Part shown: positions 2,271 through 30,452 of the stretch, one piece after another
Position numbering within the stretch: position 1 is the stretch's first letter
Layout of the letters: the number at the start of each line of letters is the position of its first letter
DNA from: Escherichia phage kaaroe
Reading direction: 5' to 3' (one strand)
Sequence record: MN850574.1
Length of the DNA stretch: 64,000 nucleotides
Translations under genes and position numbers: made by a program
The notes under the pieces: generated by a model
Told to the model about the DNA's origin: nothing
What the model saw: only the letters and a program-made list of their open reading frames with translations
Databases searched by the model: none

Positions 2271-3082
2271 TGAAGAAAGCATTAGGTTTAATTCCCTATA
2301 CTGGCAATAAGGAAAAGTTATTGCCGGGTGTTAGTAAGTATTTCCCTAAGCACTATAACCGCTTTGTTGATGCCTTTTGTGGCGGCTTGAGCGTGTCTCT
2401 GTACGTAGAAGGGGATGTGCTGGCTAATGACTATGATCACCGCTTAATTGAAGCGTACAAAGCGATTGACGAGTGTCCTGATCCGGTTTCTACGATCAAG
2501 CGGATTATTGCCGAGAATGATTTGTCTCGTGATGATAAAGATGCTTACATGGCATTCCGTAAGAAGTATAATGAGAATCCAGATCCGCTATCTCTGTTTG
2601 TTCTGATTCAGCACAGTTTTAGCAACATTAACCGTCATAACAGGAAGGGCGAATTTAATGCTAATTTTGGTCGCCGGACTTTTAACGAAAACGCGGTAGA
2701 GCGTGTCCTGAATTTTAAGGAAGAAAACAAAGACGGTCGAATCAGTTTTACGTCTGGTCGTTATGACGAGATCGAGATCTTGCCAGGTGATTTCGTTTAT
2801 TTGGACCCGCCGTACCTTATCACTTCTGCGGAATATAATAAGTTCTGGAGTGACGAGGAAGAGATTAAATTCTATCAGTGGGTAGAATCTATTATGGCGC
2901 GTGGTTTTCAGTTTGGTATAAGTAATGTCACGCATCATAAGGGAAAGGCAAATGATCATCTTCTTGACTTTATCAAGCGGAATGATTTAAACTGCGTCTT
3001 GTTGAATAAGACCTATTGCCTAGATCGTTCAGGTGGCAAGTCTTCTGATACGCAAGAAGTTTATGTAACTAACGTAGATTGA
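2270..3082 (+). CDS. dam: DNA adenine methyltransferase Dam
   Basis: N-terminal YTGNKxKLLP..FVDxFCGGLSVSL and DPPY motif; colinear with recalled T4 Dam. Confidence 0.85.
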   Translation: MKKALGLIPYTGNKEKLLPGVSKYFPKHYNRFVDAFCGGLSVSLYVEGDVLANDYDHRLIEAYKAIDECPDPVSTIKRIIAENDLSRDDKDAYMAFRKKYNENPDPLSLFVLIQHSFSNINRHNRKGEFNANFGRRTFNENAVERVLNFKEENKDGRISFTSGRYDEIEILPGDFVYLDPPYLITSAEYNKFWSDEEEIKFYQWVESIMARGFQFGISNVTHHKGKANDHLLDFIKRNDLNCVLLNKTYCLDRSGGKSSDTQEVYVTNVD

Positions 3083-3090
3083 GGTATAAC

Positions 3091-3372
3091 ATGGTAGAAA
3101 TTTTTGGTTTTGAAGGTTACAACTGTAAGTATTGCCAGAATGCAAAGCGCCTTTGTGAAGCGCGTAAGATCCCTTACATCTACATTCCGGTTAATGATGG
3201 TGTGGACGAAAACGGTCGCCCGGTAAAGATTGATTCTATCATTGCCGATATTCAGGATCGCGCAGGGGTAGAAGTTATTGCCACCATGCCGCAGATTTTC
3301 TATGATGGTGATTATATCGGTGGCTTTGATGAGTTCCGATCCTTTGTAGTCAAAAACAAGATTAATGGTTAA
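3091..3372 (+). CDS. nrdC: thioredoxin/glutaredoxin-like protein NrdC
   Basis: CKYC redox motif, MPQIFYDGDYIGGFDEF tail similar to recalled T4 NrdC; ATG 3091 after GAGG. Confidence 0.7.
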   Translation: MVEIFGFEGYNCKYCQNAKRLCEARKIPYIYIPVNDGVDENGRPVKIDSIIADIQDRAGVEVIATMPQIFYDGDYIGGFDEFRSFVVKNKING

Positions 3373-3396
3373 ATACCTTCTTTGGAGGGTGAATTT

Positions 3397-3870
3397 ATGT
3401 TACTGACTGCTAAGAGTGCTAAAGAGTACAAACAAGAACTATTCGAAAAACAGGGGGGCATTTGCCCCCTTTGTCAATTGCCACTTTTTGAGGATATGAG
3501 CAAAAACCATCTTGACCACGACCACGATCTAGATGGGAAAGGGCAAGGCCGCGTAAGGGGATTGCTTCATTCGTGTTGCAACCGCCTAGAAGGATCGTTG
3601 ACCGGAGACTTTAAACGGTTTGGTGTTGGTGCTTTAGGTGCTGATTTCGTTGTTTGGGCTACAAACTATGTTAATTACATCAAAGGAGACTACACCAACA
3701 ATCATTTACATCCTCAATATGCTGTTGATAAAGTAAAACGATTTTCACGCTTGACACGCGCGGAGATGGTTGATATTATGGACGCAGAAGGTTTCGATTA
3801 CTGCGACGCTGATACAAGAGAAGAGATCACGAAGAAGTATAAGAAACAATTTATACAAAGATTAAGATAG
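3397..3870 (+). CDS. 49: endonuclease VII (Holliday junction resolvase) gp49
   Basis: MLLTAK..CPLCQ..HLDHDH..RGLLHSCCN matches recalled T4 gp49 zinc-binding/H-N-H region. Confidence 0.85.
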   Translation: MLLTAKSAKEYKQELFEKQGGICPLCQLPLFEDMSKNHLDHDHDLDGKGQGRVRGLLHSCCNRLEGSLTGDFKRFGVGALGADFVVWATNYVNYIKGDYTNNHLHPQYAVDKVKRFSRLTRAEMVDIMDAEGFDYCDADTREEITKKYKKQFIQRLR

Positions 3871-3933: not shown

Positions 3934-4206
3934 ATGCGTAAGATGTTTAAATCCGGTGTTGCCTATGTTTTTAAATCTGAGCAAGCACATAAAGACTTCT
4001 TAGATGATGAATACGAGGGGGTGAAAGATACCTACGAAGTCATCAAGAATGGGTTTACTGTTCTTAAAGTGTCACCTGTTGGTTATGTAAGTGAAATCTC
4101 GGTTGATGGGAAAACATACACCGCTAAAGACTTTGATCCGCGTTGGGAATTTATGCTGCTTCCGTGTGAGCGCATTCTGTTCCGTGCTGTTCAATTAGTG
4201 AAATGA
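3934..4206 (+). CDS. hypothetical protein, paralog family A member 1
   Basis: AAGGAG RBS; GF(T/K)VLKV..G.V..I.VDG..YT..DF module shared with next two genes. Confidence 0.5.
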   Translation: MRKMFKSGVAYVFKSEQAHKDFLDDEYEGVKDTYEVIKNGFTVLKVSPVGYVSEISVDGKTYTAKDFDPRWEFMLLPCERILFRAVQLVK

Positions 4207-4220
4207 TAGAGGATTATATT

Positions 4221-4787
4221 ATGGTACAGAAAACGTATAAATTGTATCCGGCTAAGTCTTCAAATGATGCTGTTTTTGAACGAGGTCGTTATTACACTTT
4301 CCGTAATGCTGAGTCCGCAGAGGAATTTGTTAAACGCTACCCACAACATAACAAGTTCCTGTATGGTGTGCTTCACAGGGGCTTTAAAGTTCTTACGGTT
4401 AATGTTATGGGTAAAGTGTATTTGGTAGAAACTCATGATTATGAGGGTGCATCAATCATGATTGATGCAAGCGAGCGCAAATACTTTAAACGCATCACTA
4501 AAAAGCAGTTTGAAGAAATGAAACCAGTTAAGAAAGAAGAATCTCTGGAAGATCTGATTAACTTGTTTGGTAAAGTTCGCTCTATCTCCTTTGCGATTGA
4601 AGATGACATTACCGACAATAAAATCTTTATCAAGAACGCGGAAGACCTGAAAGAGTTCCTTATTGAAAATAGATCTCGGCTGGAAACCTTTCTTGAAAGT
4701 GAAATTATTCGACATGATACCTACGCTAAATTCAGCGCCGATAAAGTAGCTGAACTGAAAGAGATCCAAAAGTCATTTAACGCTTGA
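4221..4787 (+). CDS. hypothetical protein, paralog family A member 2
   Basis: Shares GFKVLTV and ERKYFKRITKKQFEEM modules with 4844..6022. Confidence 0.55.
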   Translation: MVQKTYKLYPAKSSNDAVFERGRYYTFRNAESAEEFVKRYPQHNKFLYGVLHRGFKVLTVNVMGKVYLVETHDYEGASIMIDASERKYFKRITKKQFEEMKPVKKEESLEDLINLFGKVRSISFAIEDDITDNKIFIKNAEDLKEFLIENRSRLETFLESEIIRHDTYAKFSADKVAELKEIQKSFNA

Positions 4788-4818
4788 CATGATGAAACGG
4801 GAGTAGTAAGATACTCCC
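4784..4818 (+). promoter_or_regulatory. early promoter with GGGAGTA/TACTCCC hairpin (PeSL-like)
   Basis: TTGACA 4784-4789, 17-nt spacer, TAAGAT 4807-4812, arms GGGAGTAG/TACTCCC. Confidence 0.6.
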
Positions 4819-4843
4819 ATCTAAACAACGAGAGGATTATATT

Positions 4844-6022
4844 ATGGCTAAATTCTTTGAAGGTCATTACTATGCATTCCGTGAAGGCGGTAAAGATGAG
4901 TTTCTAGACTTTTCTCGCTATTCAATTATTCTGACCGATGCTTCGCGCCGTGGTCATATTCGGGTTGCTGAAATCGTAGAAAAGGGCTTTAAAGTATTAG
5001 AAAAAGATGACCACGGTCATGTTATTACTATTGAAGCTGGAGATGTAGTTTATTCCGCTGAGGATATCGTTTATTATTGGTCTACTATGATTATGCACAA
5101 TGAGCGCAAATACTTTAAACGTATCTCAAAAGAGGCATACGAAGCGATGAACAAGAAAGAGGATGCAATGCCGACTTACTTTGAAAAAGGTAAATGTTAT
5201 TCGTTTACCCCAGAAGGTTTGCAAGAATTTAAGCGATTCTGGGGAGAGCATGACCCAGAGCACAAAGAAGCCATGAAACTTGTTGATTTTGTCGAATATG
5301 GCTTTTTAGTTGAAGAAGAATTGCACGGATCAGCTACCATGATCACCGCGAAAGGTGAAACCGTCAAGGCGGACCGTTTTTGTGATCAATGGAATTGCTT
5401 GTTTGACGGTAGCGAATTTGAATACTTCGCGGAAATCACGAAACAACAATTTCATTCTATGCAAGCGGATGGTCAGAGATTTAAAGTAGGTGAACGCTAC
5501 AAACCAAATCAGCATAATTTGCCATATTGGTTTACCGCTGAAACTGTATCAAGTCATGTTGTTGAAATTGTTCAAAAGCTGGGACAAGGATTTAAGGTAA
5601 CTAAAGTAGATGATTATGGAAGTGTTGACGCGGTTGAAATTGATGGTGTAGAATATACACCGAAATCTTTCGGTCTTTGCTGGTATCACTTGATCAGCAA
5701 TGATGAACGTTATAACTTTGTTGAACTGCCATCTGAACCGGAAGAAGCACTAGAAGATCATGATCATCTGTCTGAACTGGTTAAGCTGTTTGGTGATCTG
5801 CCGGATGGTGTAGGCGTGGCGGTAATGGGTGAAGGTGCTGTTATCCGAAACCTGAAAGACTTTAAAAAGTTCTTGATTGACATGCTGCCTAAACTTGATG
5901 ATAATCTAGATACAGATATTCAGAATCGCAAAGAAATTGTTAAAGAGACTGAAAAAGAGATCGAAGAGATTCGAGCAATTCGCCAGAAGGTGAAAGCAGT
6001 AAAGAAAAAAGTTAGTGCTTGA
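4844..6022 (+). CDS. hypothetical protein, paralog family A member 3 (internally repeated)
   Basis: Contains GFKVLEK, GFKVTKV, ERKYFKRISKEAYEAM and EFEYFAEITKQQFHSM repeats of the family A module. Confidence 0.6.
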   Translation: MAKFFEGHYYAFREGGKDEFLDFSRYSIILTDASRRGHIRVAEIVEKGFKVLEKDDHGHVITIEAGDVVYSAEDIVYYWSTMIMHNERKYFKRISKEAYEAMNKKEDAMPTYFEKGKCYSFTPEGLQEFKRFWGEHDPEHKEAMKLVDFVEYGFLVEEELHGSATMITAKGETVKADRFCDQWNCLFDGSEFEYFAEITKQQFHSMQADGQRFKVGERYKPNQHNLPYWFTAETVSSHVVEIVQKLGQGFKVTKVDDYGSVDAVEIDGVEYTPKSFGLCWYHLISNDERYNFVELPSEPEEALEDHDHLSELVKLFGDLPDGVGVAVMGEGAVIRNLKDFKKFLIDMLPKLDDNLDTDIQNRKEIVKETEKEIEEIRAIRQKVKAVKKKVSA

Positions 6023-6053
6023 CATGCGAAGGGAGTATGCTATAATACTCCCA
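6019..6053 (+). promoter_or_regulatory. early promoter with GGGAGTA/TACTCCC hairpin (PeSL-like)
   Basis: TTGACA 6019-6024, TATAAT 6041-6046, arms GGGAGTA 6031-6037 and TACTCCC 6047-6053. Confidence 0.6.
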
Positions 6054-6076
6054 CTTAACAACGAGAGGATTATATT

Positions 6077-6571
6077 ATGTGGGTACAAGATGTTTGGTAT
6101 ACTGTAACTAAAGAAAACCTTGACGCATTCAGCGACCAATCTTGCGCTAATAGCTCAATTGCTGGTATACTTACTGATGTGTTTGGTGGTGTAGATAAAA
6201 TTCGTTTTAAAGTTGTTGTTAGTTCGCTGGGTCAGGTGAAAGATCTTTACACCGAAGATAAAGACCTTGATCTTGAACTTCGTCTTCGTATTGATAATGC
6301 AAGTCTAGGTTATTGGTTTGAAGATAACGAATATGAATACTTCACGCCAGCAATTAAAGTTTTTGCGACTAAACTGGAAGCTGTACTGAATCTCCGACCA
6401 ATTAATGTTGACGGATACATTATCAAAAATATTCAGGATTGGGAGTTGTATCTAGATCAGGTTATCCGAAATAGTAAGCAGGAAGCCGCTAATAAGAAGC
6501 GACAAGAGATTAAACAGCTTAAAGCTGAACTAGAAGCTAAAGAAAAAGAATTAGCAGAACTGGTAAAATAA
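6077..6571 (+). CDS. hypothetical protein with C-terminal coiled coil
   Basis: GAGAGGATTATATTATG start context; C-terminal heptad-like KQLKAELEAKEKELAELVK. Confidence 0.5.
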   Translation: MWVQDVWYTVTKENLDAFSDQSCANSSIAGILTDVFGGVDKIRFKVVVSSLGQVKDLYTEDKDLDLELRLRIDNASLGYWFEDNEYEYFTPAIKVFATKLEAVLNLRPINVDGYIIKNIQDWELYLDQVIRNSKQEAANKKRQEIKQLKAELEAKEKELAELVK

Positions 6572-8483: not shown

Positions 8484-8512
8484 AGCCGATCCGAAAGGGT
8501 CGGCTTTTTCGT
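8484..8512 (+). terminator. intrinsic terminator
   Basis: AGCCGATCCgaaaGGGTCGGCT then TTTTTCGTTTT. Confidence 0.65.
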
Positions 8513-8521
8513 TTTGGGGTG

Positions 8522-8549
8522 TTGACAACATGATTAGCTAATGTATAAT
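8522..8549 (+). promoter_or_regulatory. sigma70-type early promoter
   Basis: TTGACA 8522-8527, 16-nt spacer, TATAAT 8544-8549. Confidence 0.55.
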
Positions 8550-8578: not shown

Positions 8579-9118
8579 ATGATGATGTTTTGTGTACTGA
8601 ACAAAGAAGTTAAACTTCGTAAACTGGAAATTGGCGATGGTGTTGTTGTTAAAATGCACGCTAGCACATTGACTAGTTTTAATTTAAAGGAAAGTTTTTT
8701 TATTAGAGGAACGGTGGTTAATATCTGCTGGAGTAAAGGCGAAGGAATCCGTAGCTTTTGCGTAATTGACGATGATAATAACCTGTATGTGATTCGCTAT
8801 CATAATAATTCTGTATTGGTCTATACCGACAATTCACGAGAATTGTATACTCTTGAATTTGTTAAGCGTACTGATTGCGATCGATTTGTTCGTGCTTATG
8901 AAGAAGATGGCTGTTTTGCGACTGAAACAGAAACAAATGAATATGTTCCTATGGAAGTAGGAGCAGAAATTAAACACAAGATCACGGATCGTATTTTTAA
9001 GGTTGTTGCGGTTGCTCATACTCAATTTGTAGCGCAAGCGCCGGATGAAGAATTTATTATCTACAATATTGGTAATGCAAGTTCTCATTTTCATAATGTA
9101 CTATATCGCGACCTTTGA
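8579..9118 (+). CDS. hypothetical protein
   Basis: ORF downstream of promoter with GAGAGG RBS. Confidence 0.5.
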   Translation: MMMFCVLNKEVKLRKLEIGDGVVVKMHASTLTSFNLKESFFIRGTVVNICWSKGEGIRSFCVIDDDNNLYVIRYHNNSVLVYTDNSRELYTLEFVKRTDCDRFVRAYEEDGCFATETETNEYVPMEVGAEIKHKITDRIFKVVAVAHTQFVAQAPDEEFIIYNIGNASSHFHNVLYRDL

Positions 9119-9738: not shown

Positions 9739-9891
9739 ATGTGGACTTTACTGATTTGGGAAACTGAAAACGCACAAGTAGAAATCCGTGAATACGAATA
9801 CCTAAGCCCAGCTTATCTATTAGCATCTCGCGGTGGTTACTATAAAGCGCAGATTGTAAACGAGTTCGGGGTAATTGAATATGAGTTCTGA
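9739..9891 (+). CDS. hypothetical small protein
   Basis: AGGAGAATCAAAT leader then ATG 9739; 50 aa. Confidence 0.35.
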   Translation: MWTLLIWETENAQVEIREYEYLSPAYLLASRGGYYKAQIVNEFGVIEYEF

Positions 9892-10384
9892 TACATACGG
9901 CAAACTACGCTATGCCGATATTAAAGATTGTGATATGGTTAACGGTGAGGGAGTGAGAGTCTCCCTTTACGTTACCGGATGTTCACACGCATGTGATGGT
10001 TGCTTTAATGCTAGCCTACTCAATCCTAAGAACGGGGAACCATTCACCGATGATACAATGGGATTGATTCTGGATCTGCTTAGACCTGATTTTATTCAGG
10101 GGCTAACATTCTTAGGTGGCGATCCACTGTATAAACGCAATTTAAAGGGTGTACAGCGGATCATCGATGAAGTAAAATCATGGATGCCAAATAAAGATAT
10201 TTGGCTATGGTCCGGTTATACCCTTGACCAATTGAATGATGAGCAAAGAAAAATTGTAGAATCAGTTGACATGTTCATCGATGGGCGTTATATTAAAGAT
10301 ATGCCAACGAAGAAGCCGTGGCGGGGATCTGACAATCAAGTACAATACAAGATTGTTAATAGTATTCCAGTGAAAATTATTTGA
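9881..10384 (+). CDS. nrdG: anaerobic ribonucleotide reductase activating protein NrdG
   Basis: Radical-SAM-like GCSHACDGC cluster, GGDPLY and KKPWRGSDNQ matching recalled T4 NrdG. Confidence 0.9.
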   Translation: MSSDTYGKLRYADIKDCDMVNGEGVRVSLYVTGCSHACDGCFNASLLNPKNGEPFTDDTMGLILDLLRPDFIQGLTFLGGDPLYKRNLKGVQRIIDEVKSWMPNKDIWLWSGYTLDQLNDEQRKIVESVDMFIDGRYIKDMPTKKPWRGSDNQVQYKIVNSIPVKII

Positions 10385-10394
10385 GGTGATTATT

Positions 10395-10922
10395 ATGGAA
10401 TGGGAAGTTGGTAAAACTTACAAGATTGAATGCGAAGCGTCGAAAGCCGAACTGACTAAATTTTCGTCGTCTATTAACAGATGTATTGTTGACTTGTTGG
10501 CTGGTCGCCCGTTTAGGGTAGAAGACCTTGACGATGATGGTGATGTTAGAGAAATTACTATTATTGGTAGTGATTTCGACTCTATGACGTTAAAAGAATC
10601 CCCTATTGGTTGTTCTGGTGTGTGGTTTTGGTCGGGTGAGCGTCGTTTCTTTACCGAAGTTACTATTGAACCTAAGATTCCAGATTCAGAAGAAAAAGAA
10701 GAAGACCTAACTTTAGAACGCCTGGGTCTGCTTATGGAAGCCTACGACATTCAGTTGATCGATAAGATGGGGTTACATAATAGCATTGCCAAAATTACTA
10801 CCCTAGAAGGTATTAAGAGCGTACTGGATGGTATGCCTAGCCGGATCGGTGCTATCAGAGAATACAAACAAACGCGCGACCGTATGATCCAATTAGAATC
10901 ACGTATCAAAAATGAGAGATGA
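10395..10922 (+). CDS. hypothetical protein, paralog family B member 1
   Basis: N-terminal MEWEVGKTYK motif shared with the next three genes. Confidence 0.55.
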   Translation: MEWEVGKTYKIECEASKAELTKFSSSINRCIVDLLAGRPFRVEDLDDDGDVREITIIGSDFDSMTLKESPIGCSGVWFWSGERRFFTEVTIEPKIPDSEEKEEDLTLERLGLLMEAYDIQLIDKMGLHNSIAKITTLEGIKSVLDGMPSRIGAIREYKQTRDRMIQLESRIKNER

Positions 10923-10926
10923 TATT

Positions 10927-11391
10927 ATGAAATGGGAAGCTGGTAAGACCTATGCGTGGAAAGATGTAAAAGATGCAAACCAATTTTTTAAATGGTATGA
11001 TGTTGATTATTTGAAATATCTGCGATTACCGTTTAAAGTTGCGTCGGTTGATGCGAAAAAAGGATACGTGCGGTCTGTTTATCTTCATGATGGAACTTAT
11101 ATGAGTTCAACCGATGTAGGTCTATCTTGTTGGTTTCTGGATCATGACCGTAGCAGATTTGAAGAAATTATTATTCCAGAAGAATCTAAATTAATTGACC
11201 TTCTCAAATTGGCGATGGATAATTATAAAATTCGCTTTGAATGCAAATCACATGCGGCTATCGGTGCTAACGCCTTGCGTCATATCTCCAGTTTTGAAGA
11301 GTTGAAAGATTTTCTTGACAAAATGCCGGAAAGAGTGCAAGCTATACAGGAAGCTGAGAAAGCATTAAACGAACTTGATAAAATCGGTTAA
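10927..11391 (+). CDS. hypothetical protein, paralog family B member 2
   Basis: MKWEAGKTYAWKD N-terminus; C-terminal helical tail resembling other family B members. Confidence 0.55.
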   Translation: MKWEAGKTYAWKDVKDANQFFKWYDVDYLKYLRLPFKVASVDAKKGYVRSVYLHDGTYMSSTDVGLSCWFLDHDRSRFEEIIIPEESKLIDLLKLAMDNYKIRFECKSHAAIGANALRHISSFEELKDFLDKMPERVQAIQEAEKALNELDKIG

Positions 11392-11403
11392 GGGGAATAT
11401 ATT

Positions 11404-12228
11404 ATGAAATGGGAAATTGGTAAAACTTACACTTGGAAAGATGAAAACGCGAAAACTGAGTTTATTACTAACGGAGAAGGTGTTCTTTCTCCACTTAACA
11501 GCGATATCAGTGCAGCTATTGGTGACAAGCCATTTACCATCATCGAGATCGAGGGTAACGGTTGGATTGATGCAATAGAGCTAGACGGTGTTTATCATAC
11601 GGCGAAAACTGCTACAGGAAAAGACATTTGGACTGCAACATATTTCTTTAGTCCATTCGATAGAAAATTCTTTCGTGAAGTTGAAGAAGTTCCCCAGAAA
11701 TGGGAAGTTGGTAAAACTTATACTTGGAAAGATGCGAATGCTATGACCGACTTCTGTCATTATGCTGAAAACGTATCTAACCTTAATTATGTTATTGCAC
11801 GAGCAATAAATTATAGACCTTTTACTGTTAAAAATGTTAGTCCATGTGGGCAAGTTAATGTAATTGAAATTGATGGTAAAGACCATACTCTAATGAGTGC
11901 AACCGAAGATAGCGACCATAAAGGAACTAGCTGGTTTATTGATTCTGATAGAAAATTCTTTCGTGAAGTAGAAGAATTGGAAGTTATAACCACTGATTCT
12001 AAGATCGTTGGACAGTTGAAACGTCTGTTTAGTAGTCGTTATGGCCTGACAATGGTTAAATTTAGCGAAGCAAATGAAGGTAAAACCTTTGAACGTTTCG
12101 ATGATTTCATCGCAGCACTTGACAAGATGGACGAAATAATGCAAGATCGCCAGAAGATTAAAGACCTTCAAGAAGACATTAAACGTCGTGAAGTTGAATT
12201 TTTGATTGGTAAAGAGCGAGGTTGGTAA
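11404..12228 (+). CDS. hypothetical protein, paralog family B member 3 (two tandem modules)
   Basis: MKWEIGKTYTWKD and a second internal QKWEVGKTYTWKD; repeated DRKFFREVEE. Confidence 0.6.
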   Translation: MKWEIGKTYTWKDENAKTEFITNGEGVLSPLNSDISAAIGDKPFTIIEIEGNGWIDAIELDGVYHTAKTATGKDIWTATYFFSPFDRKFFREVEEVPQKWEVGKTYTWKDANAMTDFCHYAENVSNLNYVIARAINYRPFTVKNVSPCGQVNVIEIDGKDHTLMSATEDSDHKGTSWFIDSDRKFFREVEELEVITTDSKIVGQLKRLFSSRYGLTMVKFSEANEGKTFERFDDFIAALDKMDEIMQDRQKIKDLQEDIKRREVEFLIGKERGW

Positions 12229-12229
12229 T

Positions 12230-12706
12230 ATGTTTGTTGTTGGCATGACCTATCAGTGGAAAAACGAACAAGCGCGTAAAGCCTTTGCAACCAGTGATGC
12301 GAATCGTGTGATCTCCGAGTTTATCGGGGACCGTCAGTTTAAAGTCTTAGCTATTGATTCATCTACTATACCTGAATATGTTTCTGTGATTGAAATCGAT
12401 GGTAAGGCTTACCAGTGTCCAGACAATGAAAAGGTTTATCTTTATGCTTGTAATTGGTTTTCACCTACCGAAGATCAATATTTTAAAGTAGTATCAGCAG
12501 AACTATCATCCGAAGCAATGATGCAACAATTCTTCAATAACTACGAAGTTTCTGTGCGTCGCTATGGCGAAGAAGAAGTGTTTAAAATCGATGATTACAA
12601 TCAGTTTAAACGAGTATTCGCCACTAAGTTGCAGCGTGACTTTGAACGTGACCAACGGATCAAGGAACTGGAAGAAGAACTAGAAAGATTAAAGGCTGAG
12701 AAATGA
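12230..12706 (+). CDS. hypothetical protein, paralog family B member 4
   Basis: MFVVGMTYQWKNE N-terminus and coiled-coil C-terminus. Confidence 0.55.
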   Translation: MFVVGMTYQWKNEQARKAFATSDANRVISEFIGDRQFKVLAIDSSTIPEYVSVIEIDGKAYQCPDNEKVYLYACNWFSPTEDQYFKVVSAELSSEAMMQQFFNNYEVSVRRYGEEEVFKIDDYNQFKRVFATKLQRDFERDQRIKELEEELERLKAEK

Positions 12707-12972
12707 TCGAGATATACGGTATACCGAAAGAGGCTTATCATTGTTATGGTTGTATTAGTGCAATGAAGCTACTGGATGATCTGGGTATTCCGTATACACT
12801 TAAACCAGTATTCAAGCAGGTCGGGGTTGACATTATTCCCGACCGTGATATGATTGAAGAACTGGCGGGGAGGCTGAACTCAAAGAGCCTCCGGTTTGTA
12901 TACCCCCAGATATTCATTGACAACGAGCACATTGGAGGCTATAAAGAACTGAGGGCGATTTATGATTATTGA
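12703..12972 (+). CDS. nrdH: glutaredoxin-like protein (NrdH-like)
   Basis: CYGC redox motif and YPQIFIDNEHIGGYKEL; sits beside nrdG as in T4. Confidence 0.65.
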   Translation: MIEIYGIPKEAYHCYGCISAMKLLDDLGIPYTLKPVFKQVGVDIIPDRDMIEELAGRLNSKSLRFVYPQIFIDNEHIGGYKELRAIYDY

Positions 12973-13141: not shown

Positions 13142-13429
13142 ATGTTAGTACACAATGCAATCGCACACATGGTTTATTCTCGATTTGGGCGCATGGAAGA
13201 AATCAATATTACCGACGCAGATTTAGATCTGATGCAAGTCGAAGGCCAGACATATCTGAAAAATAACGGCGTGAATATCGGTAAAGCGCGTGTGCGTGAA
13301 TTGTTGGTTGAATATATTCTCTCTGAATTTGGCATTAGTGCTTTCGGTGTGAAAGAGATTGCACCTAAGCGCGAAATTTCTGATAAAATGATCAAGAAAT
13401 GCCAGAAAGAACGACGTAAGGGTTTCTAA
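13142..13429 (+). CDS. hypothetical protein
   Basis: GAGTGAGGAATATATTATG start context. Confidence 0.5.
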   Translation: MLVHNAIAHMVYSRFGRMEEINITDADLDLMQVEGQTYLKNNGVNIGKARVRELLVEYILSEFGISAFGVKEIAPKREISDKMIKKCQKERRKGF

Positions 13430-14898
13430 TGAAGATTGAAACATTAATCGCATTGCCAGCGGCGGGGAAAACTGATGCTATACTTTCCCACGTCCTAGAG
13501 ACAAAAGAAAAAGCGGTTATTGCTTCGCCATCTCGTGTTTTAAGTGAACAATCTTACAATAAGTTTAAAAGAATGGGCGGTCGTGCTGTCTTGATTGATA
13601 GCACAAGACTAAGAAGCCTTAAGACAGTGCAAGCGTCGATAATGCAATCAGTTAAAGATGGTGCTGATGTGATATTCATTACACATACAGCGTTATCTAA
13701 TATGGAACGTTCAAAAATGTTTGGTGATTATGCTCTTTACATTGATGAAGTTCCTCAACTGGTTGAATTTAATGAGTATCCGTTTAAGTCTAATCTTGAA
13801 CTTATCACGAAGCATTGCGAACCAATCGCCGACGAATCGGAATGCCTACAGAACTTAGTTCTAAAAGACTCTGAGAAGGCCGCTATCAAAGAAAAGATAG
13901 AAAGTGCGAAGGATGGTACTGATATGATCGATTCTTCTCTTAGAGGGCTTTATGAGGCGTTATTAGAGAAGAAAATCAACGTTATGGTAAAACATAACGA
14001 AGGACACCGGAAGAATGGGTCGAAAATTGTTTTCTTGAACGATAACAAACACGGTACGTGGGGAGACTTTAAAAAGGTTACGATAGCATGTGCAAATCTC
14101 TTTGATACATATAGTGGGAAGTATCTACGATACTATGCAAATTGCGATTTTGTTCCGAGTGCGCTAGAATCCAGACTATATTTCAAAGAGTATAAAAATA
14201 CAGATAGAGTTAATATCATCCTTATGACGGACTCTGAACGATGGTCGCGTCACCAGTCAGAAACAAACAATACCTTTGAACGTCTTGTTGATATGGTTAA
14301 AAATGAATGTGGCGATGACTTCATTTATACCGTGAATCGGGACCGTGAAGCGTGTACAAATGGTATTGGTGAGCGGATACCTTACGGGTCTTATGGTCTT
14401 AACTCTTACATTCATCATAAAAATGTTGCTGTGATGTTCAGCTTTAACCCTCAACGATGGGAGATTGATATTTTAAAAGGTCTTGCTAATAGTTGTGATC
14501 TCCCGACAAACGAGTTTTTGAAAGCGCGTCATGTGTCTGATTATCTGGAACCAGCATTTCAATTATGTTTGCGTTGTAACCTGAGAGACAACGAGAGCAA
14601 GGAGAATGTTAATCTATATGTTCCTGATTGGGCGTTGGTGGATTATCTAAAAACGTTTCTGCCTAATGCCAATGTAATAACAGATCGAATGATTCCGCTA
14701 GAATGTGGTGAACGTAAAGGGCGAAAATCATTTAAAAAGATGTTCGACTTTAACGAGCAAGAGAATGCAAGATTTAACGGATTTAAGTACCGCATGAAGA
14801 AAAAAGGAAAAACTCTTGATCCGTCTGACGGCGAATCTGTAGAGATGGTTAGAGTGTGGATAACTAAGCAAAGAAAGTATAATGGTAATGGGGAATAG
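13429..14898 (+). CDS. putative P-loop NTPase/helicase-like protein
   Basis: Walker A-like LPAAGKTD near N-terminus and Walker B-like LYIDEVP; no T4 counterpart recognised. Confidence 0.45.
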   Translation: MKIETLIALPAAGKTDAILSHVLETKEKAVIASPSRVLSEQSYNKFKRMGGRAVLIDSTRLRSLKTVQASIMQSVKDGADVIFITHTALSNMERSKMFGDYALYIDEVPQLVEFNEYPFKSNLELITKHCEPIADESECLQNLVLKDSEKAAIKEKIESAKDGTDMIDSSLRGLYEALLEKKINVMVKHNEGHRKNGSKIVFLNDNKHGTWGDFKKVTIACANLFDTYSGKYLRYYANCDFVPSALESRLYFKEYKNTDRVNIILMTDSERWSRHQSETNNTFERLVDMVKNECGDDFIYTVNRDREACTNGIGERIPYGSYGLNSYIHHKNVAVMFSFNPQRWEIDILKGLANSCDLPTNEFLKARHVSDYLEPAFQLCLRCNLRDNESKENVNLYVPDWALVDYLKTFLPNANVITDRMIPLECGERKGRKSFKKMFDFNEQENARFNGFKYRMKKKGKTLDPSDGESVEMVRVWITKQRKYNGNGE

Positions 14899-28039: not shown

Positions 28040-28357
28040 ATGGATAAGAAACCAACAAGTTTAGAAGAAGCACACGGCTTGATTCAAGAAGCAATGAAGA
28101 CAGTTATTCAGGAATTGATAATTGTTGATGAAGAGGGAGAGCATCATATTGTCTATATTCATAATGTTGAATACGATCCAGACACTAAAGGTATTGTGGT
28201 CGACTACTCCACGCCGTCAGATCGTGATGTGGTATATCCACACGTCATTAAGGCGTTAACCGCGCAGATCAAAGAAGCAGAAGAAAAGTTGAAAAAAGAA
28301 ACTTTCTGGTATAAACTCAAGACCTTTGTTATGCGTGTAGTTGGGGGCTATGTATGA
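28040..28357 (+). CDS. hypothetical protein (occupies the position of gene 40 in T4)
   Basis: GAGAGGATTATATTATG start; assignment positional only. Confidence 0.4.
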   Translation: MDKKPTSLEEAHGLIQEAMKTVIQELIIVDEEGEHHIVYIHNVEYDPDTKGIVVDYSTPSDRDVVYPHVIKALTAQIKEAEEKLKKETFWYKLKTFVMRVVGGYV

Positions 28358-29766
28358 TTAAAACTATCTTTTCACAGTTGATTTACAATGGCGCATTCTT
28401 TACGAATGTATGGCCTCACCTTAAAGCGGACTACTTCACCGAAGACGAAGAAAAACTGATTTATAAGCTGATTAAAAAGCACGTAGACGAATATTCCAAC
28501 ATTCCTACGCCAACTGCATTACATATTGCTTTAGACAAGGAGAGAGGCAATCAGACAACATATGAAGGGGCTAAAACTCTTCTTGATTCGCTTGAGAATA
28601 CACCGGAAGACCTTGATTGGTTAATGAAGGAAACCGAAAAATTTATTCGTGACCGTGCCATGTATAATGCAATGTCACGGGCGCTAGAGATTCAGGCGAA
28701 CGCACAACTACCAAAAGAGAAACAGAATAAGAAATTGCCGAGTGAGGGTGCTATTCCTGAGATCATGCAGGAAGCACTATCAATTACGTTTGATTCTGAT
28801 GTAGGTCATGACTGGTTTAATGACTTTGAAAAACGATTCTTGCTATATCAGACTAAGGCGAATAAGATCCCGTTTAAGCTGCCGATGTTGAATAAAATCA
28901 CGAAAGGAGGGGCGGAAAGAAAAACGCTAAATGTGTTGCTTGCTGGTGTAAATGTTGGTAAATCGCTTGGATTATGTTCTCTTGCTGCGGATTATATGGA
29001 ATGTGGTTATGATGTATTGTATATCTCAATGGAGATGGCAGAGCATGTCGTAGCCAAACGTATCGACGCAAACTTGCTTGACATTACATTAGATGAATTG
29101 GATAATGGTAATGTTTCTTTTGCGGAATATTCCGCACGTATGAAGCGTGTTAAGAATAAGAAGATCGGAGATCGTCCGGTTGGAAAATTGATGATCAAGC
29201 AGTATCCGACTGGTGGCGCGAACTCCAATCACTTTGAGGCGTTAATGAATGAATTGCGACTCAAGAAACAGTTTAAACCTGATGTTGTGATTGTTGACTA
29301 TCTGGGGATTTGCGCATCGTCTCGCTTGCGTGTATACTCTGAAAATAGTTACACACTAGTTAAGGCGATTGCGGAAGAACTGCGAGGATTTTTTGTTAAG
29401 TGGGATGTTGTTGGTTGGACTGCGGCACAGACTACCCGCGCGGGTTGGGATGCTTCCGACCTTAACATGAGTGATACCGCTGAATCAGCAGGTCTTCCGG
29501 CTACTGCCGACTTTATGTTGGGTGTTATCGAAACCGAAGACCTGGCTAAAATGGGCGTCCAACTCATGAAGCAGATCAAGTCTCGTTACGGTGATAAGAA
29601 CTATTATTCACGGTTTAACGTTGGTGTGAAGAAAGGCAATCAGCGTTGGTATGAAGTACCAAACCAGATCGCAGATCAGGAGAATGCACAACTTAAACCA
29701 CAAAGCGCACAGCAAGCCGAGAAACGAGAAAAACTCGACGAGCTAGCAAATAACATGACTTTCTAA
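28354..29766 (+). CDS. 41: replicative DNA helicase gp41 (DnaB-like)
   Basis: LLAGVNVGKSLGLCSLAADY Walker A, IVDYLGIC, C-terminal IKSRYGDKN; colinear with recalled T4 gp41. Confidence 0.95.
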   Translation: MIKTIFSQLIYNGAFFTNVWPHLKADYFTEDEEKLIYKLIKKHVDEYSNIPTPTALHIALDKERGNQTTYEGAKTLLDSLENTPEDLDWLMKETEKFIRDRAMYNAMSRALEIQANAQLPKEKQNKKLPSEGAIPEIMQEALSITFDSDVGHDWFNDFEKRFLLYQTKANKIPFKLPMLNKITKGGAERKTLNVLLAGVNVGKSLGLCSLAADYMECGYDVLYISMEMAEHVVAKRIDANLLDITLDELDNGNVSFAEYSARMKRVKNKKIGDRPVGKLMIKQYPTGGANSNHFEALMNELRLKKQFKPDVVIVDYLGICASSRLRVYSENSYTLVKAIAEELRGFFVKWDVVGWTAAQTTRAGWDASDLNMSDTAESAGLPATADFMLGVIETEDLAKMGVQLMKQIKSRYGDKNYYSRFNVGVKKGNQRWYEVPNQIADQENAQLKPQSAQQAEKREKLDELANNMTF

Positions 29767-29816: not shown

Positions 29817-30452
29817 ATGATCGCTAATGCTTTACCGCCAAAATGGATCGTAAGTCGCTTTTATACTCTCAAGGAAGGTAACGCACCTGATGGTCGTCCG
29901 ATCCGAGATCTGTTTCTGGAGATGACTACAGCCGAAGCACAGTTTTATAATGATCTGACAGACGATAAGCCATTTCTCGTAAATTCGGTGGACCTTGATG
30001 GCAATGTCACATCAATCATCACACATGGTGGGGGAGTGAAAAATATTACTTCTCTGCGTGATCACGGTTGGGAAATTGCTTGTGTATTTCCTGCGGATGT
30101 ACGCGGATTCTTTGATGAGGTATCTGATATTAAAGTAAATGCACTGGAACCATATGACGAGATCCCACCACTGAAAGAAGAAAAAGAGTTGACACCGGAA
30201 GATGTAGATAGTACACTACACCCCGACCTATTTAAGAAGATTAGCGGTTTATGGACTGTTACCCTGTATCCAACCGCATTAGGTCTAGAATTGGGTATGC
30301 CAACTTATTCTGATATTGATAATTGGAATAAGAGCATTGATAAAGATGTTGAAAAACAGCGAAATAATGCTAAAATGCAACTTAAAGAGAAACGCAAAGA
30401 TCTTGAACGACAACTGAAAGAAACAAAACGTTTGCTTTCTACATTCGCTTGA
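29817..30452 (+). CDS. hypothetical protein
   Basis: ORF with GGAGA RBS. Confidence 0.5.
   Translation: MIANALPPKWIVSRFYTLKEGNAPDGRPIRDLFLEMTTAEAQFYNDLTDDKPFLVNSVDLDGNVTSIITHGGGVKNITSLRDHGWEIACVFPADVRGFFDEVSDIKVNALEPYDEIPPLKEEKELTPEDVDSTLHPDLFKKISGLWTVTLYPTALGLELGMPTYSDIDNWNKSIDKDVEKQRNNAKMQLKEKRKDLERQLKETKRLLSTFA

Follow-up and report, generated by a model that had tools for sequence, protein, structure and literature searches.

Four adjacent plus-strand open reading frames (ORFs), hereafter genes A, B, C and D, lie between nrdG and nrdH at positions 10395-12706 of the 64,000-nucleotide stretch of Escherichia phage kaaroe DNA analysed here (MN850574.1; the window). The main new result of this study is that the N-terminal heads of the encoded proteins are exchanged between related phages on constant tails. 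On balance we favour the reading that A-D are a lineage-specific expansion of the GoF/Frd.2 family of T4-like phages, in which accessory barrel proteins, made early, would dock onto the transcription or RNA-turnover machinery while their heads recombine on the constant tails.

Judged by its sequence, the window is the DNA of an RB49-type T4-like phage. Its segment 9800-13200 showed 98.6-98.9% identity with several Escherichia phages, RB49, TB34 and Delraymugoa among them, and was matched by 58 phage records labelled nearly throughout as Escherichia, Enterobacteria, Shigella or Krischvirus; every record opened among them belonged to the genus Krischvirus, family Straboviridae. A-D correspond to RB49p051, p050, p049 and p048, with exactly matching positions; across the records inspected, which included RB49, Phi1 and TB34, these orthologues all bear the label "hypothetical protein". 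Each gene is preceded by a Shine-Dalgarno sequence, the intergenic gaps are 1-12 nucleotides (nt), and the stop codon of D overlaps the start of nrdH (ATGA). The proteins are acidic (isoelectric point, pI, 4.8-6.1), and their heads carry a net charge of -1 to -7.5. The parts of the array and its flanks are as follows (aa, amino acids).

9875-10384, + strand: nrdG, upstream flank (Pfam Fer4_12, E 2.4e-43)
10395-10922, + strand: gene A, 175 aa, orthologue RB49p051 (phrog_5347, E 1e-66); N-module 10395-10676, then an acidic linker; tail 10677-10919
10927-11391, + strand: gene B, 154 aa, orthologue RB49p050; N-module 10927-11184; tail 11185-11388
11404-12228, + strand: gene C, 274 aa, orthologue RB49p049, two hidden Markov model (HMM) domains; module 1 11404-11694; module 2 11695-11982; tail 11983-12225
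12230-12706, + strand: gene D, 158 aa, orthologue RB49p048; N-module 12230-12508; tail 12509-12703
12703-12972, + strand: nrdH glutaredoxin, downstream flank (Pfam Glutaredoxin)

Exchange of heads on constant tails

When nine loci were compared with the window at the DNA level, nrdG and nrdH were 96-100% identical and the tails of A-D 84-100%, while individual N-modules fell to 56-72%. Across all compared phages, nrdG retained 96-100% and nrdH 97-100% nucleotide identity. In phage FL38 the N-module of B was only 56-57% identical versus 96% for its tail, and in MIZ4, phiS and Brandy the N-module of D was 67-72% identical versus 98-100% for its flanks; a metagenomic contig, L004, carried divergent N-modules at A, B and D. 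The same held for proteins: those of contig L018 were 97-100% identical to the window across nrdD, nrdG, nrdH and their neighbours, and its heads of A, B and D were 46%, 47% and 68% identical, respectively. Twelve genomes resolved into two allele classes at A, three at B and four each at C and D, combined differently from genome to genome, and among representatives of clusters at 90% identity the heads averaged 58-78% identity and the tails 92-99%. The orthologues of gene C came in a one-module form of 174-185 aa and a two-module form of 274-281 aa, the second module of the latter being very different in some cases.

Between allele classes, the synonymous divergence dS reached 1.0-1.6, as against 0.01-0.2 in the flanks, and the ratio of nonsynonymous to synonymous divergence (dN/dS) was 0.15-0.6 in the heads and 0-0.15 in the tails. 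Because dN/dS stayed below 1 and old alleles were embedded in young flanks, the pattern reflects the recombinational exchange of old head alleles as cassettes under purifying selection, rather than rapid divergence by point mutation under positive selection. An earlier note on this DNA had proposed that the genes may form a diversifying family; this holds in that, among Krischvirus genomes, no part of the region diverged more than the N-modules, and falls short in that dN/dS above 1 was never reached. Within the heads, variable positions concentrated in helix 2, the hairpin of strands 2 and 3, and the long loop, while strand 1 (GKTY) and the WF..(E/D)R.FF.EV end were conserved. In the literature found, an organisation combining multiple barrels, tandem arrays, constant tails and swappable heads has not been described.

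Contig L004, a more divergent relative, also differed from the window at two further genes: its protein identity was 73% for the orthologue of RB49p055 (8579-9118) and 72% for a DEAD-like helicase located 3' of nrdH (13429-14898), with 93-99% for nrdD, nrdG and nrdH.

Membership in the GoF/Frd.2 family

Profile comparisons placed the N-module in the family formed by the N-terminal domains of GoF/ComC-alpha and Frd.2. As assessed by hhalign, the five N-modules of A-D matched T4 GoF at 94.7% (E 5.9e-8), and a 20-sequence family profile matched GoF at 96.2% (E 2.6e-9) and Frd.2 at 93.5% (E 2.3e-7), each over 87 columns. An HMM built from the window modules alone scored GoF at 41.5 bits and Frd.2 at 20.2 bits. 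The similarity to MotB.1 was marginal (hhalign 46.9% over 41 columns; HMM 9.8 bits). In PHROGs, all four genes were placed in phrog_5347, with secondary matches to phrog_622 (up to 7e-19) and to three phrogs annotated "goF mRNA metabolism modulator". T4 GoF itself belongs to phrog_622 (4.6e-38) and also matches phrog_5347 (6.5e-7), so that the link is reciprocal; phrog_622 was matched by 62 of 76 family members.

Other searches were less informative. Pfam PF03197 (Bacteriophage FRD2 protein; gathering threshold 29 bits, T4 Frd.2 scoring 133 bits) was matched by none of A-D at E ≤ 0.1 and by none of the other five members in the window at E ≤ 1; the Pfam, NCBIfam and PADLOC scans of the A-D proteins gave nothing meaningful, and PDB sequence searches with the N-module and tail profiles returned only noise at E about 1 or above. 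By sequence, the family proved small: a profile search of 1.84 billion representatives yielded 88 matches, which after removal of false positives were almost all proteins of 120-270 aa with an N-terminal module; the false positives, about 10 of the 88, were long Ig/cadherin/SpaA repeat proteins aligned on a short strand-like segment and were rejected on the basis of a Pfam scan. Word-indexed homologue searches returned nearly exclusively Krischvirus relatives, and a search for related loci with a narrow alignment returned two Krischvirus loci only; the spread of the family beyond Krischvirus is drawn from the BFVD structural matches described below.

The fold had previously been taken for an uncharacterised one, a description overtaken by the definition in 2025 of the GoF/Frd.2/MotB.1 "LSm-like fold" family, an SH3-like barrel (Kim et al., 2025; PMC12152347). 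According to that study, the nearest solved structures of the family domains are SH3-like domains of the FeoA and IdeR/SloR type, and a linker connects the domain to C-terminal domains of diverse kinds. GoF is early, abundant (~20,000 per cell) and dispensable, and runs as monomer and dimer on gels; goF is tied to rho-suppressor genetics; GoF(D25Y) alone stabilises gene 41 5'UR RNA (longer reporter half-life) independently of Hfq, the wild-type protein having no RNA effect and an unexplained function (PMC12152347). T4 frd.2 was the sole fitness gene of unknown function in a CRISPR interference (CRISPRi) screen (PMC11879866), and amber mutants plate normally (PMC12152347); even for T4, the evidence on how important the family is remains mixed. 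RB49, Krischvirus, tandem arrays and multi-barrel proteins are not mentioned in PMC12152347.

A-D thus share with the T4 family a homologous ~90-aa N-terminal barrel with the same structural neighbours, a flexible acidic linker followed by a small C-terminal part, an acidic protein as a whole, and location in accessory regions of T4-like phages transcribed, in the case of A-D probably, with early genes. They differ from T4 GoF in that their tails are not detectably homologous to its C-terminal domain (CTD) and end in a long charged helix, and in that the genes form tandem arrays of four with some proteins of two or three barrels, the family numbering nine genes per genome versus three in T4. 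Residue R84 of A (window 10644-10646), just before the conserved FF, is a native Arg at the position of the GoF suppressor G84R; the equivalent residues are Lys in C (K88 and K184), Ser in B and Gln in D.

Extent of the similarity, start motif and tails

The four genes were confirmed to be a genuine tandem paralogue family, with homology spanning ~90 aa. In all-versus-all BLASTP of A-D, 91-170 residues were aligned at 25-34% identity (39-49 bits), and N-module HMMs built with one gene left out retrieved the omitted gene from the 637 window ORFs at E 6e-8 to 4e-31. G6, T8, Y9, F40, F78 and F86 were invariant across the five modules. The third gene had been said to contain two full modules, which was borne out by two HMM domains (E 9.5e-41 and 6.4e-44) and by two predicted barrels, the second module starting at residue 98 (QKWEVGKTYTWKD).

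The common start motif M(E/K)WE(V/A/I)GKTY..WK(D/N) proposed for all four genes proved accurate for B and C, which begin MKWE[AI]GKTY.WKD, and for the internal repeat of C, and inaccurate as literally stated for A and D: gene A starts with MEWEVGKTYKIECE, which lacks WK[DN] and has KIE where WKD is expected, and gene D with MFVVGMTYQWKN, which lacks M[EK]WE. The possibility that the motif arises from a conserved translation-initiation leader was put to the test and failed, since the internal copy in C has no initiation leader; moreover, the similarity far exceeds the motif, and GKTY forms strand 1 of a barrel predicted with confidence by AlphaFold2 (AF2). The leader idea is thereby largely refuted. 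A capsid-targeting leader of T4 internal proteins (MKTY...) was likewise considered and dropped, as the motif recurs internally and forms barrel strand 1.

Reading back from the annotated ATG of gene D, the frame stays open as far as a TTG at window 12206 and thus runs into the end of gene C, which leaves the true start of D uncertain. Some D alleles (L006 2707-3225 and L018 7806-8324) carry a 7-residue duplication just 5' of the module start (GNMFVDGNMFVVG).

The claim that all four proteins end in a charged helical or coiled-coil tail was supported as to the charged helix, while a coiled coil was not demonstrated. AF2 predicted a long terminal helix with moderate to low confidence (A 147-174, C 242-271), modelled as a monomer helix, and the terminal-helix stretches were 36-59% charged. 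Tail homology was detectable in the leave-one-out test for A (E 0.01) and B (E 1.7e-4) only.

Predicted structure of the barrel

AF2 models were built for gene C with a 35-sequence alignment and for gene A with 76 sequences. The N-modules were predicted confidently, with a predicted local distance difference test (pLDDT) score of 80-96 (83-96 in gene A), and gene C showed two barrels. Strand 1 leads into two helices and then into strands 2 and 3; after a long loop come a short helix and the last strand, such that a helical hairpin is inserted after strand 1 of an SH3-like barrel. The barrel is followed by a disordered acidic linker (pLDDT < 50 at A 94-102 and C 192-204) and a weaker tail. The predicted module thus has the bent five-stranded antiparallel beta-sheet of the family, with neighbours of the FeoA/IdeR/SloR type: Foldseek against the PDB returned a tandem Mib repeat (E 1e-3), FeoA, SloR, ScaR and IdeR, the same neighbours as published for the N-terminal domain of GoF (PMC12152347). 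Among viral models (BFVD), 65 structural matches were obtained at E ≤ 1e-3, all of them uncharacterised proteins, from T4-like and some other large myoviruses of Escherichia, Aeromonas, Edwardsiella, Proteus, Pectobacterium, Citrobacter, Morganella and Serratia.

Since no Hfq or Sm protein appeared among the top Foldseek matches listed, "SH3-like barrel" seems to describe the modelled fold better than "LSm". The module resembles Hfq and the Sm/LSm proteins, to which the published name of the family refers, in its small bent five-stranded antiparallel sheet; it differs from them in the position of the helix and in its acidic surface, and none of the N-terminal helix, Sm motifs, ring oligomer and structural match of canonical Sm/LSm (Hfq) proteins was found for it. 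Its fold relatives are FeoA, the SH3-like C-terminal domain of DtxR/IdeR/SloR, and the Mib-Herc2, Tudor and KOW barrels. As for the FeoA/SH3-like metal regulators, A-D gave no Pfam FeoA match and showed no FeoB or DtxR-type gene context.

Repeats and module exchange

Two short repeats lie at module borders within the array.

11406-11462, + strand: repeat D1, reference copy from the repeat search, at the 5' end of a module; further copies, with 67-82% identity over 57 nt, at 10397-10453, 10929-10985 and 11697-11753
11659-11688, + strand: repeat D2, at the 3' end of module C1; second copy at 11947-11976, 29/30 identical

The D1 copies, which lie at the 5' ends of A, B and the two modules of C, share a near-identical patch in their first ~24 nt. 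Together, D1 and D2 bracket one module, which is exactly the unit gained or lost, the one-module forms of C lacking exactly one module; such bracketing would offer a substrate for unequal crossover.

A possible case of exchange between paralogues was seen in a single contig, L019 (Logan contig SRR11185258_147272). Its positions 3001-3465 encode a 154-aa chimera, P0069, in which A residues 1-~50 are joined to the last part of a type-2 C module 2 and the C tail; this contig lacks B and C module 1, and gene D is split into ORFs of 64 and 105 aa. The chimera may represent paralogue recombination at a DDD microhomology or an artefact of short-read assembly.

RB49 and phi1 are known to carry ORFan cassettes flanked on either side by promoter-stem-loops (PeSLs), which combine an early promoter with a GC-rich stem-loop (Arbiol et al., 2010; PMC2839356). 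Like these cassettes and the hypervariable T-even internal-protein loci, A-D are accessory genes that differ between near-identical T4-like genomes, with homologous recombination at short conserved sequences. The exchanged unit in A-D is, however, a protein domain within a gene, bounded by conserved coding sequence (the module start motif, DRKFFREV and the tail) instead of by intergenic PeSLs; no terminator-like hairpin was found in 10395-12706, where the gaps measure 1-12 nt, and A-D are not mentioned in the PeSL papers.

A second array, a ninth gene and the T4 map

Repeated rounds of HMM searching across the ORFs of the whole window converged on 12 modules in nine genes, and no further family modules were found in the remaining 100 kb of RB49. 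Besides A-D, these comprise a second array and one solitary gene.

3934-6571, + strand: second array, between gene 49 (endonuclease VII) and nrdD; domain E 4e-16 to 5e-26
3934-4206, + strand: p060, one module, no tail; "hypothetical"
4221-4787, + strand: p059, RefSeq "goF mRNA metabolism modulator"
4844-6022, + strand: p058, three modules, RefSeq "goF mRNA metabolism modulator", gene name frd.2
6077-6571, + strand: p057, "hypothetical"
29817-30452, + strand: ninth member, 211 aa, module and charged helical tail; HMM E 3.5e-23 after iteration

RB49p058 and p059 belong to the same superfamily as A-D, share their plan of barrel(s), tail and charged helix, and sit in the neighbouring plastic gap within the nrd region; they represent a different subfamily with ~20-25% identity, and the heads of A-D are more variable between phages. 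Variation was greater in heads than in tails in the second array as well, only more weakly. If the label "family B" given to A-D in the earlier note implies a separate "family A", presumably the array 3934-6571, the two would form one superfamily.

The ninth member lies directly 3' of a gene 41-like replicative helicase (28354-29766), and the sole known GoF phenotype concerns gene 41 mRNA. BFVD gave a structural match to a 211-aa protein named "Dc2" in phage ECD7.

T4 has three family members, none at a site syntenic with either array: there, 55.8 alone separates nrdG from nrdH, and no gene separates 49 from nrdD. Other family members adjoin genes 39, motB, frd/32 and 41. Because T4 lacks family genes at both syntenic sites, the arrays are regarded as lineage-specific insertions into plastic gaps, and the nrd neighbourhood carries no functional message.

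Promoters and expression context

Two sites upstream of A bear on the timing of its transcription.

8484-8549, + strand: PeSL-like element; terminator-like hairpin 8484-8505, then a perfect sigma-70 promoter 8522-8549 (12/12)
10266-10294, + strand: sigma-70-like promoter candidate TTGACA-17-TATATT (11/12), in the 3' end of nrdG, ~100 nt upstream of A

The hairpin following nrdD consists of AGCCGATCC-GAAA-GGGTCGGCT and a T run, and a perfect TTGACA-16-TATAAT lies 17 nt further on; the TB34 record has an annotated terminator at the matching intergenic spot just after nrdD. This element probably drives a transcription unit running from p055 through nrdG and A-D to nrdH. No terminator-like site was found on the + strand between 8505 and 15000 in the scan. 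Given the sigma-70 promoters, the lack of such a site, the small gaps and the strand shared with replication genes, early transcription of A-D is likely. Another perfect promoter lies at 6019-6046, ahead of the gene at 6077. GC skew was positive to ~52 kb, negative at 52-62 kb and positive after 62 kb, sign changes consistent with a switch of transcription direction between early and late blocks.

Proposed function and alternative explanations

Family membership, fold, architecture, copy number and the population pattern follow from the comparisons above, whereas early timing, binding partner and physiological effect are inferred. Each protein consists of one or two ~90-aa N-terminal barrels, an acidic flexible linker and a ~45-80-aa tail with a charged terminal helix. 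In the mechanism that we favour, the genes would share early transcription from promoters of the sigma-70 type with nrdG and nrdH, as accessory rather than core components. The barrel would serve as a ligand-binding head whose ligand differs between hosts or competitors, and the tail as the constant part for self-association or docking to a conserved partner. By protein-protein contact, the barrel would dock onto host or phage machinery for transcription, termination or RNA decay, and the outcome, suggested by the phenotype of GoF(D25Y), would be a tuning of phage mRNA levels from host to host. Heads are exchanged between phages and, probably, between paralogues through homologous recombination at the conserved module borders. 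Protein docking is preferred to RNA binding because the proteins are acidic, wild-type GoF has no RNA effect and Sm-type features are missing, and the rho-suppressor genetics of goF makes transcription, termination and RNA-decay targets the most plausible. The host-takeover role suggested in the earlier note thus appears reasonable, since the module is, by sequence, homologous to the T4 early protein GoF.

Several observations weigh against this interpretation. In no comparison did dN/dS exceed 1, and part of the variation is general mosaicism, because the accessory genes p055 and the DEAD-like helicase of contig L004 diverge too. The GoF homology is confined to the barrel, the tails not aligning with the GoF CTD. 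The tails were modelled at low confidence (AF2 pLDDT 35-82), heptad a/d periodicity in them was not significant (shuffle p 0.16, 0.20, 0.72 and 0.07 for A-D), and neither was the tail homology of C and D in the leave-one-out test (E ~1). Finally, the promoters are consensus-scan matches only.

As a bolder extension, which we put forward tentatively, the two arrays might constitute a recombination-driven repertoire of interchangeable heads on constant tails, that is, a population-level "variable domain" system in which the combination of alleles sets the intracellular host range through the host factors engaged. Those factors would then be the Rho/RNA polymerase/RNase machinery or defence sensors, and the tails might join paralogues into mixed oligomers and thereby create combinatorial specificity.

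Among the alternatives to docking onto the RNA machinery, anti-defence or immune evasion fares best, although we regard it as rather unlikely. The variable barrels would inhibit, or be recognised by, strain-specific host defences, and balancing or frequency-dependent selection would keep the alleles. The occurrence of old alleles (dS ≥ 1) in young backgrounds (flank dS 0.01-0.2) with independent reassortment is the usual signature of an arms race, the genes lie in a plastic accessory region that is probably transcribed early, and their products are acidic (pI 4.8-6.1), as are many phage inhibitor proteins. However, PADLOC gave no matches to defence models, its library being without anti-defence proteins, no experimental link between the GoF family and defence systems appeared in the literature found, and dN/dS was below 1 everywhere.

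A direct role as RNA chaperones or protectors of the Hfq/LSm type, in which the barrels would protect the leaders of phage mRNAs against RNases by binding to them, is still less probable. It is suggested by the LSm-like name of the family, by the lengthened half-life of gene 41 5'UR reporter RNA under GoF(D25Y) (PMC12152347), and by the GoF suppressor G84R, whose new Arg falls at the position of the native R84 of A and of a Lys in both modules of C; the same considerations that led us to prefer protein docking count against it.

The notion that the genes are functionless filler of a hyperplastic region, their repeats being neutrally drifting DNA duplications, or that the shared motif is leader-made, is poorly supported and very improbable. 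The genes do sit in a plastic region, and T4 can do without its related genes under laboratory conditions (PMC12152347), but dN/dS of 0.0-0.15 in tails and 0.15-0.6 in heads, tails 92-99% identical across clusters, and retention of the family across many T4-like genera all disagree with drift, just as the internal occurrence of the motif in C, its place in strand 1 of a confident barrel and the ~90-aa homology disagree with a leader. Poorly supported and least credible of all is a role as accessory factors of the anaerobic ribonucleotide reductase, for which only the map position (nrdG/nrdH; gene 49/nrdD) speaks, whereas T4 nrdD, nrdG and nrdH do without such a gene at either site, other family members adjoin genes 39, motB, frd/32 and 41, nrdG and nrdH remain 96-100% conserved where heads are replaced, and A-D lack Pfam matches as well as any redox or radical-SAM motif.

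The T4 early gene goF has lacked an explanation ever since rho-suppressor genetics in the 1970s-80s, and it took until 2025 for its family to be recognised, from three single-barrel T4 proteins. On the evidence presented here, RB49p048-051 and their many orthologues could be renamed from "hypothetical" to GoF-family proteins, and the head/tail pattern provides a clear domain boundary for constructs. Natural isolates in which heads have been swapped, while the tails stay constant and the rest of the genome is isogenic, amount to a natural experiment for the ligand of the barrel, and the same pattern gives reason to think that the family is host-adaptive rather than housekeeping.

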